NCBI GenBank assembly: GCA_032718475.1
Contig: JAUCBJ010005418.1
Location: forward strand, 1-33,240
DNA from: Nemertoderma westbladi
Lineage: Eukaryota; Animalia; Xenacoelomorpha
Length of the DNA stretch: 33,240 bases
Reading direction: 5' to 3'
Position numbers and translations under genes: made by a program. Of this stretch, positions 1 to 33,240 are shown in pieces; position 1 is the first letter of the stretch; each line of letters opens with the position of its first letter. The notes beneath the pieces are model-generated. The model was not told the DNA's origin and did no database searches. It worked only from the letters and a program-made list of their open reading frames with translations.

Positions 1-828
1 TATTTTTATATTTTAGAAACTGTGATTTTGTATATTTTATAGACTTAAATCCCATTTTCTGGGAGCGGTGTAAAAGCTTCTGTGGGATATAACTGGCCCC
101 TTTTGCTTCGCAATCCAGTTTCCCCCCAGGCGCTGGAATACTCTAAAAAGGTTCTCTAACTGTATATATATTCCCCTCGCCCGCAAGGTACCGTTACAGG
201 TGTTTTAACGGACATAAAAGTCATTCTGCTATATACGTGTTTTGGCGGACATGGTAAGGCAAAAAACCTGTAATGCACCAACTACCTTTCACAGCTTAGC
301 CGTGATGATTCATATTACGACATCTAACAGCTGGTTGCTGACATGGAAACAGCCATTGGATGCATGGTTCTTTGTTTGGCTTGAGCCAATCAGAGCGATT
401 TTTCCTGTCGACGTGTAGCTTTTCGGTCGATCATAAGGAGAGTGTTCAGTCTTACTGCTTTTACTTGATACTTTGTTGTTATTGCTGTCTAAGCCAGAAA
501 CACCGGCTTTTTGGGAAGAACTCTAGTAAAACTGCTTAGATTATAGAAAGTATAACTGTTACCGGCGGTGTTACCTCACTTAATTTAACTGCACTAATCA
601 TATTGTTTGTACTGCTATTTAACGTCAGTTATTAATTGTATCTATTTGTTGATGGAAATATTGCTCTTTGGAGAATACGGATAAATCACCCAAAATTCCC
701 AATTTCTTGATACACTACAGGTTAGAGAGGCGGGCTATATATAACAATTGCGATTTATATCAATGTGGTGTGTATTGAATCTAATGTTATTTAGTAGACA
801 CTACCTGAGTCAATTGCTGTTCTCTTTA

Positions 829-4624: not shown

Positions 4625-4860
4625 GCGCCCTTCTAGCAGCACGTGAGATAATCAAGTAATAGACACAATGTTTGACTTTGTCCCTTCGAGCAGCACGTGA
4701 GTTTTGCTTTGAACCTTCGATATATGTATTTGCGCCCTTTGAGCAGCACGTGAATTACATCAAATAATAGACACATTGTTTGACTTTGTCCCTTCGAGCA
4801 GCACATGAGTTTTGCTTTGACCCTTTGATATATGTTTTTGCGCCCTTCGAGCAGCACGGG
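4625..4860. repeat. Minisatellite, ~108-bp dimeric unit
   Basis: Core CCCTTCGAGCAGCACGTGAG occurs 5 times about 54 bp apart (~4628, 4682, 4735, 4790, 4843); intervening segments alternate A/B. Confidence 0.9.
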
Positions 4861-4871
4861 GAGTCGACTCA

Positions 4872-6500
4872 GACCAAGCCGAGCCGAGCCGTGCCGAGCC
4901 GAGCCGAGCCGAGCCGAGCCGAGCCAAGCCGAGCCGAGCCGAGTCGAGCCGAGCCGAGCCGAGCCGAGCCGAGCCGAGCCGAGCCGAGCCGAACCAAGCC
5001 GAGCCGAGCCGAGCCGAGCCGAGCCGAGCCGAGCTGAGCCGAGCCGAGCCGAGCCGAGCCGAGCCGAGCCGAGCCGAGCCGAGCCGAGCCGAGCCGAGCC
5101 GAGCCGAGCCGAGCCGAGCCGAGCCAAGCCGAGCCGAGCCGAGCCGAGCCGAGCCGAGCCGAGCCAAGCCGAACCAAGCCGAGCTGAGCCGAGCCGAGCC
5201 GAGCCGAGCCAAGCCAAGCCGAGCCGAGCCGAGCCGAGCCGAGCCGAGCCGAACCAAGCCGAGCCGAGCCGAGCCGAGCCGAGCCGAACCGAGCCGAACC
5301 GAGCCAAGCCGAGCCGAGCCGAGCCGAGCCGAGCCGAGCCGAACCAAGCCGAGCCGAGCCGAGCCGAGCCGAGCCGAGCCGAGCTGAGCCGAGCCGAGCC
5401 GAGCCGAGCCGAGCCGAGCCGAGCCGAGCCGAGCCGAGCCGAGCCGAGCCGAGCCGAGCCGAGCCGAGCCGAGCCGAGCCGAGCCGAGCCGAGCCAAGCC
5501 GAGCCGAGCCGAGCCGAGCCGAGCCGAGCCAAGCCGAACCAAGCCGAGCTGAGCCGAGCCGTGCCGAGCCGAGCCGAGCCAAGCCAAGCCGAGCCGAGCC
5601 GAGCCGAGCCGAGCCGAGCCGAGCCGAACCAAGCCGAGCCGAGCCGAGCCGAGCCGAACCGAGCCGAACCGAGCCAAGCCGAGCCGAGCCGAGCCGAGCC
5701 GAGCCGAGCCGAGCCGAGCCGAGCCGAGCCAAGCCGAGCCGAACCGAGCCGAGCCAAGCCGTGCCGTGCCGAGCCGAGCCGAACCGAGTCGAGCCGAGCC
5801 GAGCCGAGCCGAACCAAGCCGAGCCGAGCCGAGCCGAGCCGAGCCGAGCCGAGCCGAGCTGAGCCGAGCCGAGCCGAGCCGAGCCGAACCAAGCCGAGCC
5901 GAGCCGAGCCGTGCCGAGCCGAGCCGAGCCGAGCCGAGCCGAACCGAGCCGAACCAAGAGGAGCCGAGCCGAGCCGAGCCGAGCCGAACTGAGCCGAGCC
6001 GAGCCGAACCGAGCCAAGCCGAGCCGTGCCGTGCCGAGCCGAGCCGAGCCGAGCCAAGCCGTGCCGAGCCGAGTTGAGCCGAGCCGAGCCGAACCAAGCC
6101 GAGCCGAGCCGAGCCGAGCCGAGCCGAGCCGAGCCGAGCCGAGCCGAGCCGAGCCGTGCCGAGCCGAGCCGAGCCGAGCCGAGCCGAGCCGAACCAAGCC
6201 GAGCCGAGCCGAGCCGAACCAAGCCGAGCCGAGCCGAGCCGAGCTGTGCCGAGCCGAGCCGAGCCGAGCCGAGCCGAGCCGAGCCGAGCCGAGCCGAGCC
6301 GAGCCGAACCAAGCCAAGCCGAGCCGAGCTGTGCCGAGCCGAGCCGAGCCGAGCCGAGCCGAGCCGAGCCGAGCCGAGCCGAGCCGAGCCGAGCCGAGCC
6401 GAGCCGAACCGAGCGAAGCCGAACCGATCCGAGCCGAGCCGAGCCGATCAAGCCAAGTCGAACTTAATCGTGCCCAATCGTGCAAGACCGAGCCGAGCTC
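4872..6500. repeat. (GAGCC)n pentanucleotide microsatellite, ~1.6 kb
   Basis: Directly visible, with AAGCC, GAACC, GTGCC and GAGCT variants. Confidence 0.99.
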
Positions 6501-13822: not shown

Positions 13823-14153
13823 GGATGATGATGATCGGCTTGCACTAGGGTGCAGTGCCAGCGGCCCCAGAAACATAGCGCCCCCAGATCTTGCGGTCAG
13901 CCATACAATTTCCTAATTCATTCCTGTTCTCAAGTCCTGTGTCCTTGAGCAGGCGTTTGAGGAAAGTCATTGGCTGTCCACCACGTCTATTCTCGCCAGC
14001 AGGCTGCCACAGCACAAGGTTGTGTACAGGTTGATTCTGCCGGCGGAAACAGTGCCCAGCAAGCATTAGATGGCGTTTCTGCAGGGTGATGCTAGGTCTT
14101 GGCAATGAGATGCTACCATATTTATATAACACCTCATTGCTTATGTGTGCATC
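13823..14153 (-). mobile_element. 5'-truncated RTE-like LINE, 3' end
   Basis: HISNEVLY...RHLMLAGHCFR..QPVHNLVLWQP..NRRGGQPMTF...DTGL...EL..CMADRKIW matches the C-terminus of RTE-type ORFs; short (ATC)n tail just after the stop. Confidence 0.75.
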
Positions 14154-14157
14154 ATTT

Positions 14158-14230
14158 GGTCGGTTCTGCCGGAATGCGGTGCGGTCTGTTCTACAGGAAG
14201 GCGCTCTGTTGGTCGGTTCTGCCGGAAGGG
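14158..14230. repeat. Short subterminal-type direct repeats GGTCGGTTCTGCCGGAA (2 copies plus a variant)
   Basis: At ~14158 and ~14211, variant GGTCTGTTCTACAGGAA at ~14183; abuts the LINE truncation point. Confidence 0.6.
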
Positions 14231-14535
14231 GACTGTTGGTTAATTTTATTAATTGATTAATAGATGTCTGTTATTTATTAATAGATAAATTGTCTGTTAT
14301 TAAAGATTTGTTAATAGAATACGTGTCATATAAATAATTTCAGATTTTTAAGTTTGAGGATGTTCTCAAATTCAGTTTCAAACTATCAGAGTGATACTAC
14401 AACATGTCTGCCATCATTACATTTACCTCTGTAATAATATCGACTTTACTTTTTCTGTAGGCCTAATAAACTTATAAATAAATACTATGATCTATAATAT
14501 TACAAGTAATAAATAACCTTATTAAAATATTGTAG

Positions 14536-15382: not shown

Positions 15383-16331
15383 GTGAGTTTATTGTCATGT
15401 TTATTCTTTAATGTCATAACTCAACACACAGTTACTAAAATTAAAAATAATAGTATGTTGTAAATGTATATAACAATGTTCTGAATTTGTAATATAGAAT
15501 ACTAAATACGAAAGCTGTACCTGCAAAATATTCTTGAGAAAAAGCAAACTACATTGAACGCAATCTATAGTTTTTCATTTTTTCAATCTGATATATTTAT
15601 TATAGTGGTCATTTTGTGGCTAACAGTCTGACAGTTGGTATCAGACCATCTATGTATCTGACAGTTGCAGTTAGCGCACTAGGGGTCCGGTAAATCCTTA
15701 CCCCATGGGCTGTTACCTCTCTGACTGACAGCGCAACAGCCCCTTGCTGTATAGGGAAAAGGGCCCATTATGAATAATCAATAGGCCTACAGTCAGTCGG
15801 GCACTTTTGCAAATTTGGCCTTAGTTCAAATTTGGACTCTGATTTTCAAATTTGTACTTTTAAGTACAAATTTGGCATTAACTTTGAAAGCAATGCTTAC
15901 ACAGTGCTTAATTGTGCATTGCGGCATCCAAAACTTTGATTACCGGTATCTAAAGTCTTATTAAAAATTAAAATATTTCACCATGTGTAAAAAAATTTCA
16001 CCATGTGTGCGGCATATGGGAAATATTTATAATTTTCGAAAGTTCAAATTTGAACTCAAATGCCAATATTGTACTTTACTGCTGTATGTTAGCGCTAGGC
16101 TCTACCGGTACAGCACTAGGTGCTGCATGCCGGTACTAATTATGTATAGGCTACTTTCACTGTCTGACTCTCTGCCTGTACTTCAGTAGTATGACTGCAT
16201 AACCTACCAGTCAGTGCCAGAACTGCAAAACTGCATCATACATGCATTGCATAGGTTCGCCTATTCTGCTATTGGCCTTACATTTCCACTCTGAATTTAC
16301 AGATTTAAACGATTTAAACCACATATTTGCA

Positions 16332-17271
16332 ATGGAAGATATGGAAGATGTCCAACTATTGGAATGCGTGGCTGGACTGGTTGGTGCTGCAGCTGCTGAA
16401 GCTGATGCAGTTCCTGTTGAGGACTCTGGGACCGGGACTACCGATATTGATATATGTGTTACGTCTAAAGGAACCAGTACAAGCCAAACTAATGTGACTT
16501 CAAGCATTGGCGTTTCTGACCAGACCTCAGCCTCTGGGCTACTTCAGACGGTTGCGGGAAGCACAAGTCCCAGAACCACGGCTAAGACCAGTACCCCTGC
16601 GAAACGGCACTATAAGAAACGGGAGCCGTTTCCGACACCAAAACGGTCAAGTATATTTACCAAGAAATGCCGTCAACTCCTTACTGATGCGGAAATTATG
16701 CACTACCAACTAAGAGCACATGTATCCGTTTACATCGAGAACGAAAAATCAACTATCAAGCGATTTTACACCAGTTCGGAGAGAGCGGAGTCAGTTAGGA
16801 AGAAGCTAATGATGGATACTAGCTCTGGGACATATTCGCGAACCTCCAGTCCCTGTGGTAGTGGGGGTCAAATATCAATTCTCTCAGATGAAAGCGCTTA
16901 CGTACCTCTCCCATCGCCAATAAGTCGTCGTAAATTTGCTTCGAATTATACTCAGACCGATCACCATAAGACTGTGACTTACCAAGATGCAAAGGTGCAG
17001 ACTGATACTGTCAGGTCTGGGTGGGTATACGGCCACCGGAGCGGGTGCTATTGACCCAATGAAATGTGCCATATGCGGCAATACTTGGAGAAGTGGAAAC
17101 GGGATCGACGAGTGGATTGGCTGCGATAAGACTTCAGGGAGAAAGAAATGTCAGCGCTGGATTGAGGCCAGCTGCATTGGCATTGAGGTGAGAACTGAGC
17201 GAGATAGACTGAGTCTGAAAAACGTAAAGTGGTTTTGTGCGGACCACCAAGTGCAAAGGAAAAGGCATTGA
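16332..17271 (+). pseudogene. Ser/Thr-rich protein with C-terminal PHD-like finger, frameshifted
   Basis: CAICG...EWIGCD...CQRWIEASC...KWFCADH is a PHD pattern with the central His replaced by Glu; it lies in a different frame from ORF 16242-17054, with the shift between 16987 and 17054. Confidence 0.6.
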
Positions 17272-20513: not shown

Positions 20514-22066
20514 CCCTATTAAACCCGGGGGGGGGTCAATATGACCCCCCCCGTGGTTTTTTTATTATAATTCTGAAACAAACGCAGTTGGGAATCTGAA
20601 ATTTTATGACTTTTCCTAAAAATCTATTGTCTTCCTAGTAGTGAAAACCGTTTTCAAAAATATTGGGTACTTTTCGAGTTATAGCACCATTTTTTAACCC
20701 TACTTTTGGCACTTTTTTTGAGACGTTTTTTGAAAATTACATTTCATTAAATATGAATTGTAACATCTCTAATTTTGATTTACACCGGTTTTTTGGTGTT
20801 AGAAATTTGATGGAACTCATATCAATTGATTTAGAAATTTCAAACTTGTATTTTTCGGCGGGTACCAAATTTTGGTGCCAGCACCAAATTTTGAAATAAG
20901 TCAATTTTGTAAATTGAACGTTTGAAACTTGTTTTTTACGCAATTTGGGTTTTTTGGGTTTCTGGATTCGATGAAATATATACGAGTTGCACCAAGCGTA
21001 TCAAACTTGTATTTTTCGGTGCTGTGTGCAAATTTTGGTGCTAGCACGAAATTTTGAAAATCCATTCAATAGATAAAATTGCTTGTGACAATTTATTTCT
21101 TGCGTTTTAGAGGTTTATGGCTGTTCTGAATTCAATTGAAAATATAATTATCGAACTAGACATCTCAAACTTGTATTTTTCGGATGTGGGTGCAAAATGT
21201 GGTGCTAGCACCAAATTTTGAAAACCATCAAATATATCAATTGATTGTGTTACCTTGTTTCTTGCGTTATACGGGTTTGTGATGGTTCTGAATTCAATGG
21301 AATCAGTAAAAATTTCATAAGAGTTCTCAAACTTGTATTTTTCGCCGGTGGGTAAAAATTGTTGTGCCAGCACCAAATTTTGGAAAATATGCAAATTGAT
21401 AAGTAGATAGTATCACCTTGTTTCTTGCGTTATACGGGTTTATGAGGGTCCTGAATCCGATGGAATCAATAAAAACAGCACTGGACATCGCAAACTTGTA
21501 CTTTTTGGTGATGGGTACGAAATTTGGTGCTGGCACCAAAATTTGAAAAATTACGCCGAAAAACACAAGTAGCAATGATCTGGCATATTAGAAATGTATT
21601 CCATTAGAATCAGCGCCCTCGAAAACCTGAAAATGTGAATTTATAGCATCGTAAAAGTGAATTAAAAATTTTGTGTTCTAACTGAAAAGTGCTGGTTACT
21701 TGTTTTTTTCATTTTTTTCCTACGCAGAGAGGACTAAACAGCCATTTATAGTAATCATATCATTTTTTAATATTTTCCAATGTATTTTGCACCCCAGAAA
21801 ACCTGTATTGAAAAATAATTAGCCGAAAATGTAACTTTCAAATTTGGTGAAAATTGTGCACTACTTGTAATTTTGGTGCTGCAATATAACCACCCCAGTA
21901 CATTTTTTCGAAAATTTTTTTTTTCGGTCGGATCCAGACAAGTGATACCTACGTACAAACAAAAAATCAGACGTTTTCGTAAATATTTGTAGATTTTAGA
22001 GGGGGGGGGTCAATATGACCCCCTCCCGGTATTTGTACAACATTTTATAGCCCGGTACTAATAGGG
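20514..22066. mobile_element. piggyBac-like non-autonomous element (MITE)
   Basis: TTAA|CCCTATTAAACCCGGG ... CCCGGTACTAATAGGG|TTAT (13/16 TIR match); palindrome GGGGGTCAATATGACCCCC near both ends. Confidence 0.7.
20840..21545. repeat. Five ~163-bp tandem units inside the MITE
   Basis: AAACTTGTATTTTTCGG...AAATTTTGGTGCCAGCACCAAATTT (with variants) at ~20842, 21003, 21167, 21329, 21492. Confidence 0.85.
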
Positions 22067-25049: not shown

Positions 25050-26990
25050 CGTAGTTACTGCGAAAACGGTGCCCCCCCCCCCCCCCCCCCCGCATTCGAC
25101 CTATTTCCCGAGGTACGATTTTCTTGATTTTTTGAGGGGGGACGCATAATGCCAAAAAAATAAGATTCTTCAGAGCTTTTAGCGAATCTATCGTTTTGAC
25201 CGACATGACGGACAATTGTCTTGTTTTTTTGTCTTTTTTTCACTAGGACTCTTAAAAAACCTCTATTTGACGCATCCAGAGACACCGAGAATCGAAAGAG
25301 GGGGTCTAAATTAGACGTTTCCACTTCTTGGAATACCCCGCCTCTGGGCTTGTTTTCCGTCTATTGTCCGTCAAAGTTGAAAAAACGGACAAAATGACTT
25401 TGCGGGATCCGTAATAACTCGGCTACTATTTATCGTACGCGAACGAAAGTAACACGGTTGCAACGATGACGAGTGGGTCTACCTTCGTATCGAATGGGGG
25501 TAAGAGATTTATTAAAATTTCGGGTGGAAAAAGGGGCCGTAAATTTGTACGTTTTTGTCCGTCTTTTTTCGAAATTTCATTTCCGAAATGTTTAATTTGA
25601 CAACGCGGGTAGGATTCCACTAATTCTTTTTTGAAACTCGTAGAAGACCATTGGGGCTACGTTCCTATCGAGTGGGGGTACAACAAATATGTCGACAATA
25701 GGGGCCAAAGAGGGCCAGAATATGAAAAATAGTTTTTATCGAATATTTGTTTCTTTTTCACTTTAGTTGGTTAAGGTACATTTTATACGGTTAATATCGA
25801 TACGGGGAATTCAAATATGCTATCGGTTTTGCTCCGCGGACGCTATTAAAAAAATGAGGGCCAAAAATAAAATTTCGCCCTTCACACTCGCTTCGCGGGA
25901 AATCGTCTAGCTCGAAAACTACTTAACTTACGGCAGATTTGTTTACACAGACTTATAGTGCGTTAAATTATCTATCTAACAGCGTTAGTTACAGCGCATT
26001 AGCTTTTATACAACTGGTGCGGCAGACGATCGTGTTAAATAAAATATTTAAAAAAAGGGACGAAAAAATTTTTTTTTTAATAAATCGCTACTCTATGATA
26101 ATCTAGCGTATTGCGCCAAAAGTACATTTAAAATTTAGCAAATTACCTCCGCTATCTTTTTTCTTAACATTTATAATTAAAATTACGAATTTTAAAGGTC
26201 GAAAAATATCACGTAATTTTGGCGCTTTTTTCATTTTTTTTTGGGGCCAAAAATGACCCCCTCTCAAAAGATAGAAAAAAAAATTACGGCAAAGAATATA
26301 CCAATTTTATTGAATTTGGACCACCAGAGCCGAAGTTAGAGCGATTTTAGTGAAAATATAAAAAAAAAATTTTTTACAAAAAATTAAGAATGGTCAATAT
26401 TGGATTTCGTACCCGCGAACTTAGGTTTCATTAACGTGATTGATAACCACTAGACTATGTGACCAAGTGAATTTGAAATTTTCGAGTGACTATTTTAAAA
26501 CATCAATACCTTTGGTTCTATTGTGCCGTTTGATCTGAAACTTTTTTCATTGGATAGAGGATAGATTTGTAGTGTGTGAAATAGGATACAACTTGGGAAA
26601 AGACGCATGTGCACTTAGTGCAAAATTCACTTAAATAGTGGACATTTTGTCGATAATTCAAACAGTATTATTTCAAGTTCTATACATCCTAGAATGTTAG
26701 TTTCTGGGTTAAAATGTAGTTTGGGGTGATTTCTAACTATAATCTTAACATTTGTTTATCTTTTTATGTCTATAAAGTGACTTAAAATGTCCATGAATAT
26801 GGTCCAAAATCGCAAATGTCGCGATTTATTAAATTGGATTTTTTACACTTTTAGCAACAGACACTTGATTATACACCATCGTAGATCGGTAGAGGATAGA
26901 CATAAGTGTGTTAAATAGGAACCACCTTTAGGATCCGCTAAAGTGCACTTGTGCAAATGTGTGCAAATGTGCAATTTTTTTAAATAAGGT
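25050..26990. mobile_element. Probable non-autonomous DNA-transposon remnant(s)
   Basis: Non-coding with homopolymer runs and dispersed direct repeats (~25480/25657 CTAC.TTC.TATCGA.TGGGGGTA; ~26555/26890 TAGAGGATAGA...GTGCACTT). Termini not resolved. Confidence 0.35.
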
Positions 26991-27352
26991 CAAATTGTGT
27001 ATTATTGGGTTCTTTTCGTTGCAGATAGTTTATTTTCATATTTGTATGTTGTTTGTGTTGCCGTTATCCCGACACCAGGAGGGAAAAACGCCGATGCTGG
27101 AGACGTGACTTTACAGACCACGGAGTCCCGGCCAGTCACCGGATATTGATTGTGGAGAAGGAATAATTTCTGAGATGCAAGATTGCGGGTGAGGAAAAGC
27201 TGCATTGGTTGGATATACTCTTTAATGTAACTTCCTACAGTTGAACCCTGATTGATAATTAATTGGGCTTCCCCAAATCAATATACACCAAATATTCACA
27301 ATAATTATACACGACAATATAAATCCCTACAGTATATTATTTAATTACCCAC

Positions 27353-28234
27353 TGTTCGCTCAGATTTTAGCCTAACTAATGTTCCCCAGATTTTCCCTCG
27401 GTCCTAGTCTTAGTGCCGTAGTGTCGGTGTCGGTCGACCCTGTTGCGTGTCTGTTCCGCCCCACCCGAACCCCGAAGGGATCGATCATCGAGAACCAGCA
27501 CGGCTTGGATAAGGGTCGGTCCAGTCGGTAGACTCTGTCGCTTATCCGTCCCACCCCTCCCGAACCCCGAAGGGATCGATCATCGAGAACCAGTATGGCT
27601 TGGCTAGGGGTCCGTTGGTTCATCGCAGAGACCCAACCAACTAGGCTTTCCGAGTCCTTATTCAGGCTCGTAGTCGCTTCGGCAGCCGAGAATCTGCTCC
27701 GAACAGTCGGTAGGCCAGTAGCGTCCAGTCCTTTGTCTTTCGACCTTGTCGCATGTCCGTCCCACCCCTCACGAACCCCAAAGGGATCAGTCATCGAGAA
27801 CCAGTACGGCTTAGCTAAGGGGGCTGTCATTTCCCGTCGCGAATCCCTGGCACAAGCAGCATACTTTCCGATGTCCTTTTCAGGCTCGTAATAACTGCTG
27901 TTGGCCAGGGGCCGCTAAGGGCAGTCCTTGTCCTTTAGGCCTGGCGCATTACCAAATCCACCTCTACAGGCAGCAGGAAGTTGGCCAGGGCCTAATAGTA
28001 CTCAGGCTAACCTGAATACTGCTTAACTTTGCCTCCCACCCCTGGCCCTTATAAACATGAAATTATTCCCGTACCCTGTAAGTTGCCCCAATGTTCGCCC
28101 ATAAATCGCCCCCAGTTCATAGAATGTGCCCAAAACCCATAGTCCCGCACCCAGTAGTGATATCGGAATAATCATTTTAAATAAATACAAAAAATATTAA
28201 ACTCGCGTTATGAAAAGTTGAAATACCGCGAACA
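27353..28234 (-). repeat. 3' LTR (882 bp)
   Basis: 7-bp perfect terminal IR TGTTCGC...GCGAACA; TATA-like TTTATAAG at ~28050(-); three internal copies of CGAACCCCRAAGGGATCRRTCATCGAGAACCAG-like sequence. Confidence 0.85.
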
Positions 28235-28235
28235 G

Positions 28236-28243
28236 TCCCCCCC
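28236..28243 (-). promoter_or_regulatory. Polypurine tract
   Basis: GGGGGGGA then C then TGTT on the minus strand, immediately before the LTR. Confidence 0.8.
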
Positions 28244-28410
28244 AATGACCTTCGTGAGGTCTATCGGTAGATTGAGTTTGCGTAGGTCATTCCCAATATA
28301 AAAAACCCAAATTTAATATTGCATAGTCTTAATTAATTTGGCCTAGAGTTTATATATATATATGTATAAAAATAAATGTTCAATAAATGTTCCTGGAATA
28401 TCCCGGTTCA

Positions 28411-29245
28411 CTATTTCTTTCTCTGATACGCCTTTCGCCTCTTCGCCCGTCGACTCTCGTCGATCGCTAGAGCTGGAAGGGGAGCGTCAACATCCATCGT
28501 GAGCAACGCTTCGGCTTGTCTCCTGGCGGCTCTTCCTAAAAGAGCGTTCGCATAGTCGTTCCGGACGTCCACTTTTATATCCGACCCGATTTTAATGACG
28601 TCGAAGTTGAAGACTTCGAGTCTTTTGGATTTTCGGAGGTAGTAACCAGATCGCTCCGGCTGCCTGCACTTCCTGTCTGGGTGTCGGGAATATTCGACAC
28701 ACCAATACCAAACCATCCAGGGTTCCGAGGACGACGACCAAGGATCGACCGTATTCTTTCGCCCCGTACTTTTCCTGGATGTCATCGCGATTCTGGATGA
28801 TCAATATACATTCCTCTCGTAGCATCGCCGTACACTCTGACAGGTTTCCCCAGTGGGCGAGGTACGTACTCTTGTCGTCGACGAAACTTTGACATCGCGC
28901 CAATGCAATCGCTTTCGAGGTGGGCGTCGCGTTTCCCTCGTTGTCGTATATCAAACATCGGGATTTGTAGACGCTTTGCCGGAACGTTTCCCAGAATGAC
29001 GACTCGTCCCCTCCGGTTGCCTTTGCGTTCCGAGTTCTTTTCAGTCTCGTACTTGCATCGGACAACCGGAGCTCTCGTAGGTACCGGGAATCCGGTCCCT
29101 CTCGCGCGGTGAATTTAACGACTCGCACATTCTCATTTATCAGGGCATTCCAATTCGTATCAAAGTTAGGGGATCCAGGTTGCAGATATTCCAGTAGATC
29201 TATCGTATTACGTAATTCGCCGATAATTTGGCGATTTGGGTCCAT
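28411..29245 (-). pseudogene. Extra ORF of the BEL/Pao element: putative DEDDy (WRN/EXD/Mut-7-like) 3'-5' exonuclease, frameshifted near 28625
   Basis: CLIYDNEG (ExoI DxE), VVVLGTLDGLVLVCRI, LLPPKI, then in the second frame DVIKIGSDIKVD (ExoII-like); no clear ExoIII motif and no signal peptide. Confidence 0.5.
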
Positions 29246-29774
29246 ATTTACGATTATGTCCGTTGCAAATTAGATCAGTTAATTATAAGTCCAGAAAGTC
29301 TGAAACTATAGTGATTGCAGAATAATTCGGTTTATTAAATAACATTGCTATATAGGCATCTACCATCTATTGCTAATACATTCAGCATTTGCAGTTACTA
29401 TAGCTATACATTAATATCCAACCAGTTTTGACTTTTTATGTCCTCTTCTTTTTTTCAATTCTTTTATTAATACATTTTATACATTTTTTTGTCTTTTTTC
29501 CATTTCTCATTATTATTTCATTTCACATTTCATTATTTCAACATATATTTCATCATTTAGTTCCACCATTTATTCTCGATTTTGTTTATTTCCACATCAT
29601 CATTGGGGTTATAGCCCCCCGGCTATCATCATTTGTTATAAGCGCAGCACCAGGGTGCGCATCATTACATTTTCATCACCATACGCGTCATCATTCGGTT
29701 TATAGTAGAGTTGTCTGTTTTTTTTCATCATTTCCAACTACATTCAATCATCATCTTTGGTAGATTTTTGTTGT

Positions 29775-30200
29775 GGAAGGGGTGTTACGCGGCAATCTGG
29801 GATCTACAGCTGGACTCGTTACACCGCCTACGCCCCAAACTGCGCACGTAACGGACAATGAAGATGCTGGGAGTGAAGTCACGTGGAATGCACCAGGGAC
29901 CCACCAGAATAACACTCCCAACAACATAAAGCTCAGCCGACGAAGTCATGTGGGATGGGGTTACGCAACATTCTGGGATCTACAGCTGGACTCGTTATAC
30001 TGCCTACGCCCCAAAATCCACGCAACGGTCCCACCAGAATAACGCGACTGAGAACATAAAACCTCTATCGTCGAAGTCATGTGGATGCACCATGGACCCA
30101 CCAGAATAACGGGATAGAGGGGGTGTTGCGCGGCAATCCGGGATCTACAGCTGGACTCGTTACACCGCCTACGCCCCGAACTGCGCACGCAACGGACAAC
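29775..30200. repeat. ~170-bp tandem repeat (about 2.5 copies) in the retroelement 3' region
   Basis: GGGATCTACAGCTGGACTCGTTAYACYGCCTACGCCCC at ~29799, 29975 and 30140. Confidence 0.9.
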
Positions 30201-30468
30201 ATAACATACTACAATGGATACAATGAATTCCACTTCAAATCTTTACCATTTCCAATAATCCAAAACCGTTGGTCCTGATGACCAAAATCAGGGTAAACAA
30301 TACATAAACGACCCTGCGTCAGTCGAAACATCTTCAGGGTGACGCTGGACTCCACATAACACACGAGGAAACACAAATACCATTGCGTGGTTACAGTTGT
30401 TTAAAGGGGGGTCCATTTACATTGTCAGTAAATCACAGTTTAAAGTTTGTCAACAGGATGAGAAGGGT

Positions 30469-32913
30469 TTAAACGGGTTTATCATTGTCACCAATCTCCG
30501 CAGCAGGATCCTGAGTAGGGAACTTATCACCTCTCGTAGAGTCACCGCTGTCATTGCCTTCAAGAAGGCACAGCCTCTGGATAGGGCGTTGGTAGTAGCC
30601 CTTTGCCGTTCGTATCGTCACAGTCCTCGCAAGTCCGTCTTTGCTCGGGTGTATTGCCGCGACTCGCGCCACAGGCCAGTGGACGCAGTCTTTGAGATCT
30701 TCTTTTACTAGTACCATGTCGCCAACTGCGACATTCCTGTAGGTGTTGTTCCACTTCCTCCTGGTCCGGAGGGTTATGAGGTACTCCTGGGCCCAGATTC
30801 TCCACCAATGCGCTGCCAACGCTTGGGCCTTCTTCCAATTTGTATGTCTCGCGATATCGCTGGGATCCGGAAACATGGTCTCTGGGAGAACATGGGTTTT
30901 GGGTCTCCCCAGTAGGTGGTTAGGCAGAATTCGCAGAATGTTGTGCGGAGGGTGTCATGGGTTACCCGGGTGTCTCCTAGAGCGGCGCGCATGGACCGTT
31001 TCACTAAGTCGATCAGTTTCTCCCTTACCCCGCTTGTATGGGGTGCTAAGGGGGTCTGGAAGTGCCACTGTATCTGGTGTTCCTTCCAGACTTGGGATGC
31101 GGTGTTGTCAGTAAACCATCCCTCGATCGCCTCTCTAAGTTCTCGTTCTCCTCCCACAAAGTTTGTACCATTATCGGAATACATGTAGCGACATGTCCCG
31201 TTGTTCGCCACGAACCGACGCAGAGCGTTGATGAATGCGTGTAGCGTCAGGTTTACCACAATGTCTAGGTAGATTGCCCTAGACCTAAGGCAGGTGAAGA
31301 TGGCTCCCCAGCATTTGATGTTGGATCGCCGTTCGATGACCGTAAACGGTCCGAAGCAGTCCACTCCGGTGACGTAGAACGGTGGGGAATCTGCTTGTAG
31401 ACGGGTGGCTGGTAAGTCGGCCATCTTTTGGGTGAGTGGTGGCGCTAGATATCTTCTGCAGGTAAAGCAACGTTTCAACACTTTCCGGATCAGTGGCTGG
31501 ATGTGGGTGATCCAATATCTTTGTCTTATATTAGCTATAATCCAGTTCTGTCCTGCATGATGGTTTTCCTCGTGACATCGTTGAATTAATAGCTTGGCTA
31601 GTGTTGACGTTCCGGACAGAAGCGCCGGGTATTTAACCTCATATTCGACCGGGGCGTTTGCCATCCGGGTATTCAGTCGGATCAGTCCGTCCTCTCCCAT
31701 CATTGGTCTCAGCTGGTAGACTGGGCTGTCCGGTTTCAAGGTTTTGCCCGCACTAAGTTGTTCCCACTCATCGGGGAAACTTTCTCTCTGGACATATCCA
31801 ACGATACTCTTCTCCACGATAATGAGTTCTTGTATACTCCGTTGAACTATCGGTTTGTTGTCTTTCCACCGTAGGAAGTTGTGAAGGGTTATAATGTGGT
31901 GGATGAGCCGTCTCATTGATGAAGTTCGCTCGATCAACAGATGTAAAGACGCCGCTGGTTGAGTGATCGTCGCGACGTTATAGTGCCGGCCCGAGTCCTT
32001 TGCAGGCTCAGTCAGACAACTATAAATTTCCACTGCGTTGCTTCTATGGACTTTACGGATCTCTTTATCATCCTCGGAGTATTTTCCGCTATCGAGTTCG
32101 GGGTCGAATCGGGTACTCCATGTTAATTGTGGCTGCTGTAGGAATTCCGGGCCTGTAAGCCAGAGTTTGCTTTTACCGAGTTGTTTTGGGGTGGCGCCTC
32201 GGCTTGATAAGTCCGCTGGATTTTCTTTCCCGTTCACGTGGTGCCACTGTTCCCGGCCGGTACACTGTTTAATCTCCGTGGCTCGGTTCGCAACAAACGT
32301 AGTGTGACGCCGTGATGGAGAGTGGAGATAATAGAGAACTATACTCGAATCGACCCAGAAGTGTTGAGATTCGATGGGGATTCGTAGGTTCCGCATGACC
32401 ATGCGATTCTGTCTTACTGCCCAAACTGCAGCCTGTAGCTCGAGTCTTGGAATCGTTGCTACGAATTCCCCGGATACTGTCTTAGCTTTAGAAAATAAGA
32501 AGCTCGTATCGCCGTTTCCATCGTTGCTTAGTCTTCGTAAGAAGGTGACTAGGCCAATTCCGGTATTCGAAGCATCCGAGAAGGTATGGAGCTGGAAGAT
32601 ATCGGTGGGTAGTTTATCGAGGAAGAACGGTCGAGGTATCCGCATAAGATGTAGGTGTTCGAGCTGCTCCATCCATTTTCTCCATTTGACGCTGAGGTGT
32701 GGGGGGAGTTCTTCGTCCCATCCCAGTCCTTCTATCCACATTTCCTTAATCAGGTTCATTCCGGCCAAGGTTACTGGAGATATGAAATTTAGTGGGTCGA
32801 AGATGGCGCTTTTTATCGACAAACATCCCCTTTTTGTCATAGGCTTGGGTAGGGGTTTATATTTGAAAATGAATTCGTCTGATTCTATGTCCCATTCAAT
32901 CCCGAGTACACGG
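30469..32913 (-). pseudogene. pol: BEL/Pao pol (Peptidase_A17/RNase H-like region, H2C2 integrase Zn finger, rve core, DUF5641) with a deletion/frameshift at ~30925
   Basis: IFDPL, LHTFSDAS, TIPRLELQAA, FWVDS, ENPADLSSRG, HEENHH...C..C, GVDCFGP, SDNGTNFVG; FCE is fused to PNHLLG in another frame (NSRPL segment missing); WAQEYL...VGDMVLV...WPVARV...DGLARTV. Confidence 0.95.
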
Positions 32914-33240
32914 TGACGAATGTATATGTGGGGCTGCGCATTAATATTGGAGTGACATGCGGTCAAGTATAACGTATGTGTATTCAGATATTATAAGAAG
33001 AGCAAACCAAGCATTAGGCCTAGATGAAAAGGGCAGTACAGAATTCAGAAGGCAGTATAAGTACTGGAATACTATACATACTTACTTCCTGGTTTCCATA
33101 GGTTGCCAAGCAACGAAAGGCGTTGTTAAGCAACGATATAAACAACTGAGTTTGTGGTATGAACTAAGTACGCCTAAAATAAACTGTCACCGCACAGCGG
33201 TGAAAAAAAAACGGTTTTCCTAGGCTGTCAAGCAACGGAA

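Follow-up and report, generated by a model that had tools for sequence, protein, structure and literature searches.

The 33,240-nt contig JAUCBJ010005418.1 of Nemertoderma westbladi, analysed as a whole and hereafter called the window, carries on its minus strand (33000–27056) the 3' part of a BEL/Pao long terminal repeat (LTR) retrotransposon, recognized by Pfam matches, open reading frames (ORFs) and sequence. A third ORF, hereafter ORF3, occupies the env slot between the pol remnant and the polypurine tract (PPT) and is a family-wide accessory gene under purifying selection. Judging from its motifs, ORF3 probably descended from a DEDD exonuclease of the EXD2/WRN type that was captured and strongly diverged. 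The favoured explanation as a whole, to which we assign a probability of about 0.45, is a selected env-slot accessory gene that likely encodes such a captured, diverged DEDD 3'-5' exonuclease, which would trim RNA 3' ends.

Organization of ORF3

ORF3 extends from an ATG at 29245 to a TAG at 28411 on the minus strand. Its 835 nt correspond to 277 codons, a stop codon and one additional base; hence it contains one frameshift, as a preliminary description of the window had proposed. The frameshift site (28613–28620), with loose contig ends at 28613 and 28621, separates piece A (28621–29245; residues 1 to ~209) from piece B (28411–28612). Piece A contains LIYDNEG with the putative ExoI motif D101-x-E103 (codons checked), an insert of ~60 residues, VVLGTLDGLVLV, a predicted beta-hairpin at 168–187, and LPPKI within the LPPKIQ block. 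Piece B contains IKIGSDIKVD, part of an ExoII-like VIKIGSDIKVD (28599–28567), followed by the C-terminal basic tail RRAKRRKAYQRKK and the stop codon. All four motifs quoted in the preliminary description, as well as the basic tail, are present. The start codon has A at −3 and G at +4, and the codon GC profile of ORF3 resembles that of pol.

The previously noted candidate splice acceptor TTTCAG (29300–29305, minus strand) is located 55 nt upstream of the ORF3 start codon, which is the first ATG downstream of it. This is the sole minus-strand match within the element and one of 16 across the window, which gives a chance of ~5% for such a placement; on both strands the window contains 31 matches versus 22 expected. 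No splice joint at 29305–29300 was seen.

A hydropathy scan of the window copy detected neither a signal peptide at the N-terminus nor a C-terminal transmembrane anchor (best 19-residue hydropathy in piece B, 0.89), in agreement with the preliminary description, though the internal window 168–186 of piece A reaches 2.08, above the usual transmembrane threshold. The combination of signal peptide and C-terminal anchor that marks an env-like fusion glycoprotein is thus absent from this copy. The occupied env slot and the hydrophobic window could point to a small env-like or membrane protein, but the window copy has just 277 codons, the hydrophobic stretch is modelled as a beta-hairpin with a predicted local distance difference test (pLDDT) value of ~75, and viral folds gave no match. 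We consider such a protein very improbable.

Conservation of ORF3 among copies of the family

Sequencing contigs from five runs and four studies cover part of the window. Variants were analysed in the region 28380–28980 (601 bases), covered by 542 contigs in run X1, 287 in X3, six in X4 and two in X5. From 40 of the 44 variant positions, three within the break were excluded and 37 were scored. Third codon positions account for 24 of these 37 differences between the window copy and other copies (p 9e-5), with 16 of 26 in piece A and 8 of 11 in piece B. Of the 25 sites at which some of the copies share the difference, 21 are third positions and none is a second position (p 3e-7). Sites private to the window copy, where nearly all others differ from it, show only 3 of 12 at third positions (versus 21 of 25, Fisher p 8e-4). 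The third-position bias at shared sites and its absence at private sites imply that the active lineages are under purifying selection, and suggest that the window copy decayed neutrally after insertion. The summed contig depth over ORF3 is of the same order as that over pol, depth not being a copy number; among the contigs listed, none links ORF3 with pol.

These data also bear on the reading of ORF3 as a chance frame or a host fragment private to a decayed copy. Its lack of homologs and its broken frame would fit that reading, but the 542 and 287 contigs on 601 bases come from two studies, the third-position bias at shared sites is strong, and the codon GC profile is like that of pol, so that we regard it as already refuted.

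The window copy has two lesions. Contigs that bridge 28613–28620 are unshifted in all four runs, and the frameshift is therefore private to the window copy. The second lesion, missed by the preliminary description, is at 28531–28537 (minus strand), where contigs have loose ends on both sides in X4 and on one side in X1 and X3. These ends, which run to 84–96 letters in X4, indicate that other copies possess a stretch of at least about 85–95 letters that the window copy is without. The coding frame is identical on either side of this site, and six of the seven differences downstream of it fall at third positions. No variant is recorded, among the 40 of 44 positions available, in the codons of D101 and E103 or of the ExoII Lys, Gly and Asp. 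The preliminary description had made its proposal depend on the presence of the ORF in other copies, which was found, and on the conservation of D101 and E103, which no variant contradicts among these positions.

Relation of ORF3 to DEDD exonucleases

PF01612 domains were collected from bacterial genomes and by a homolog search. An ordered five-block model was constructed from 40 EXD2/WRN-like rows, and 11 RNase D/NrnC-like rows were held out. In ORF3 the model picks CLIYDNEG, RSLVVVLG, LVLVCRI, LPPKIQKT and VIKIGSDIKVDV, landing on the four motifs that had been read as following the DEDDy order. The score of 27.7 bits is above all 500 shuffles (maximum 21.3) and all 504 pol chunks (maximum 13.1), and is within the range of the 11 held-out true DEDDy domains (15.8–37.8). 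The ExoII block, K-[IV]-G-x-x-x-x-x-D, is present and scores 15.6 bits, a value reached by none of 2000 shuffles. The LP and ExoII blocks flank the frameshift at family-like spacing. These p-values are generous, as the choice of the exonuclease family preceded the test of the blocks; the prior for an exonuclease gains from how few kinds of ORF3 cargo are known.

Several results weigh against an exonuclease. The score is far under those of family members (at least 79 bits), and nearly all of the signal comes from ExoII: one of six blocks is significant alone, and the four blocks of piece A are matched by 89 of 2000 shuffles. The ExoI block contributes just 0.5 bits and needs ~60 residues where the family has 9–12. 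The YxxxD of ExoIII was not found in the window copy by the block search. With this copy and its two lesions as query, no DEDD match was obtained in Pfam, and NCBIfam, PHROGs and PDB sequences were also empty; an hhalign comparison was not significant. A hidden Markov model of 51 PF01612 sequences gave no score to piece A, and its score for piece B was matched by 78 of 1000 shuffles. Fold searches with a model of residues 90–209 returned no match, viral folds included. For the window copy, neither the profiles nor the partial, low-confidence model thus gave the match to a DEDD RNase H-like domain that the preliminary description had called for, and we do not file ORF3 as a member of PF01612. 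Of the earlier proposal, the motif order of the EXD2/WRN type stands, while its ExoI part is poorly matched and the captured nuclease lacks a profile or fold match.

The AlphaFold model of ORF3 read through with X has a pLDDT of 30. The best of the single-sequence models of residues 90–209 has a pLDDT of 62.8 (the other four, 52–36); its predicted strand ends at D101 and its hairpin spans 168–187, which gives the arrangement that the motifs require. D-x-E is thus present at D101/E103 at the end of a modelled strand, in a block that is weak and has a rival register. This second ExoI-plus-hairpin-like register is at 29173–29069 on the minus strand (residues 25–59; SPNFDTNW, VRVVKFTA, SRYLREL) and has normal spacing. 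It has Asn in place of the catalytic Glu and is matched by 68 of 2000 shuffles; it is either due to chance or a degenerate duplicated half-domain.

In the family ExoIII is 60–78 residues past ExoII, and the gap in the window copy begins ~10 residues past ExoII. Because the gap opens where ExoIII is expected, the absence of ExoIII here, which the preliminary description had observed correctly, says nothing on the state of the family.

ORF3 might instead encode an accessory protein without kinship to DEDD nucleases, an orphan whose ExoII-like block resembles theirs by chance. We found no relatives among 5.8 billion proteins of 119–380 aa, two matches among 1.84 billion representative proteins, both repeat proteins, and nothing in viral and metagenome contigs; the empty library and fold searches and the single significant block point in the same direction. 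Against this, four blocks spanning the frameshift have an order and spacing that none of the 500 shuffles or 504 natural decoys matched, the LP and ExoII blocks keep the family spacing around the break, and this type of cargo has precedent. We judge an orphan origin unlikely, with a real share of the probability.

Descent from a DEDD exonuclease would also be compatible with a pseudo-nuclease, an RNA binder without cutting activity that acts as an adaptor for the element RNA or as a decoy of the PIWI-interacting RNA (piRNA) pathway. Maelstrom and EXD1 are inactive DEDD derivatives according to the accessible part of PMC5408684. The weak, ambiguous ExoI with its large insert and a rival register without Glu, the unseen ExoIII and the basic tail would fit such a protein. 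However, D101, E103 and the Asp of ExoII all occur here without a recorded variant, and ExoIII may sit in the stretch missing from the window copy. We rate a pseudo-nuclease somewhat less probable still than an orphan.

Possible function of ORF3

Returning to the favoured explanation, the ORF3 product is predicted, at slightly less than even odds, to be an active nuclease. Translation would start from the ATG at 29245 on a subgenomic RNA whose splicing probably takes place at 29300. Being outside Gag-Pol, the product would act in trans. It would be a soluble protein, directed by the basic tail to the nucleus or to RNA. The two-metal chemistry of EXD2/WRN-type exonucleases is established; in ORF3 the ligands of two metals would be D101 and E103, the Asp of ExoII, and an ExoIII presumed to lie in the stretch absent from the window copy. 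RNA 3' ends would then be trimmed in trans, the likeliest targets being ends relevant to host control of the element, either small RNAs or its own transcripts.

We can speculate further, as in the preliminary description, that ORF3 counteracts silencing; this specific role is conjectural and improbable. The same low standing applies to the full scenario, in which a high-copy BEL/Pao family uses a spliced subgenomic RNA to express a captured, active exonuclease that destroys or trims piRNAs or small interfering RNAs in the animal germ line as a silencing suppressor, and in which a second LTR superfamily acquired this class of cargo by a separate capture.

The rotifer DEDDy ORF3s, which are likewise non-env third ORFs of LTR elements, have never been shown to be active or useful, according to the accessible text of PMC5408684. 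Many divergent copies together with clear purifying selection on the third ORF make this a testable retrotransposon accessory gene. Should ORF3 prove to be a nuclease, the capture of exonucleases would have taken place repeatedly, in different LTR superfamilies; action on small RNAs would make it a counter-defence of a kind rarely encoded by animal transposons; without kinship to nucleases, it would be a selected orphan protein that has no relative in the searched collections.

The host element and other features of the window

The pol remnant (30774–32990, minus strand) includes the end of the reverse transcriptase, the RNase H region and the integrase (Pfam Peptidase_A17, 1.2e-38; Integrase_H2C2, 6e-9). 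The C-terminal end of pol (30469–30954; DUF5641, Pfam 1.4e-30) is in a different frame, so pol is frameshifted near 30920–30955. The order of the Peptidase_A17 RNase H region, integrase and DUF5641 tail is that of a Pao-type pol. Among the best 120 of 2732 matches, the closest pol relatives are 34–38% identical, all 120 contain PF05380, and their hosts include molluscs, a ribbon worm, echinoderms, fish and a coral; at only 34–38% identity, the element lineage is without a close relative on record. The family contig cover drops near 32900–33000, and an unrelated low-depth contig spans 32914–33240. The end of the family cover indicates that the copy is 5'-truncated and that gag, the protease, most of the reverse transcriptase and the 5' LTR are missing.

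A non-coding spacer (29306–30468) separates pol from ORF3 and is AT-rich at ~29310–29760. Its degenerate direct repeats (29772–30199; self-blastn) have an 83-nt core, are 94% alike and 341 nt apart, and many copies have joints here; they may serve as enhancer repeats or form an RNA structure. Downstream of ORF3 follow the PPT (G7A; 28235–28243) and the 3' LTR (27056–28234; 1179 bp, TGTT...AACA), both on the minus strand. A PPT followed by an LTR that is 0.2–1.2 kb long and has TG...CA ends is typical of BEL/Pao, here seen for the 3' LTR only. The preliminary assignment to BEL/Pao, with a non-env ORF between pol and PPT, is therefore borne out by Peptidase_A17, DUF5641, the PPT and the LTR. The LTR boundary agrees with flanking-repeat contigs that end at 27052–27055. 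Tandem 95-bp repeats within the LTR (27420–27890) vary in number among copies. In run X1 one contig with a joint 27857–29025 skips 1167 bases, with which the larger part of ORF3, the PPT and the beginning of the LTR are gone; it represents a deleted copy. The element is inserted in a different, commoner repeat (26500–27055), the summed depth of which is ~10 times that of pol.

Elsewhere the window contains a ~1.7-kb satellite with a 5/10-bp unit (4733–6450; GAGCC-type, strongly strand-skewed) and a cluster of 25–55 nt inverted repeats (20866–21545) resembling miniature inverted-repeat transposable elements or foldback elements. The end of an ORF at 13845–14270 (minus strand) presumably resembles the C-terminal tail of a long interspersed nuclear element reverse transcriptase. 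A 283-residue stop-free Ser/Thr-rich frame at 16203–17054 (plus strand) may be an exon or what is left of a transposon.

Comparison with known systems

Juno and Vesta are Ty3/gypsy-like LTR lineages, other than BEL/Pao. DEDDy ORF3s are described, in the accessible part of PMC5408684, in these two bdelloid rotifer retrotransposons and in Terminons, where they were found by HHpred; this bears out the precedent invoked in the preliminary description. The same text states that their activity was not demonstrated, proposes a role in RNA 3'-end processing or silencing, and reports near-neutral intragenomic evolution. The account is repeated in the accessible parts of PMC5718144, PMC6431247 and PMC6338049. 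Similar to the Juno and Vesta ORF3s (PMC5408684, PMC6431247, as far as accessible), the present ORF3 is a non-env enzyme-like ORF past pol without a coiled-coil or transmembrane domain. The rotifer ORF3s, with which ORF3 was compared by description only, show strong homology in HHpred and keep the invariant residues (DEED) intact. Unlike them, the present ORF3 has a BEL/Pao carrier, a likeness near noise, a 60-residue insert and no visible ExoIII.

Literature searches, with supplements and transposable element databases outside their scope, found no published exonuclease cargo in BEL/Pao elements. Cer elements of C. elegans, which belong to this group, reportedly carry an additional domain like RNase D; if so, an exonuclease cargo in BEL/Pao has precedent. 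The word exonuclease does not occur in the accessible parts of PMC3118150, PMC554778 and PMC6238403, and the ICTV profile of Belpaoviridae (PMC8742986) lists gag, pol and env-like genes only.

With EXD2, WRN-exo and Mut-7 (PF01612) ORF3 shares the order of ExoI, beta-hairpin, LP-x-x-hydrophobic block and K-[IV]-G-x-x-I-x-x-D ExoII. In contrast to these proteins it has no Pfam match, scores 27.7 bits versus at least 79, has a long insert and lacks ExoIII in the window copy. Unlike in Tas and Cer7, the third ORF is not env-like; with these and other Belpaoviridae that have an env-like ORF (PMC8742986 and the accessible part of PMC554778), the element shares the pol domains, the PPT, an LTR of 0.2–1.2 kb and a third ORF located before the PPT.
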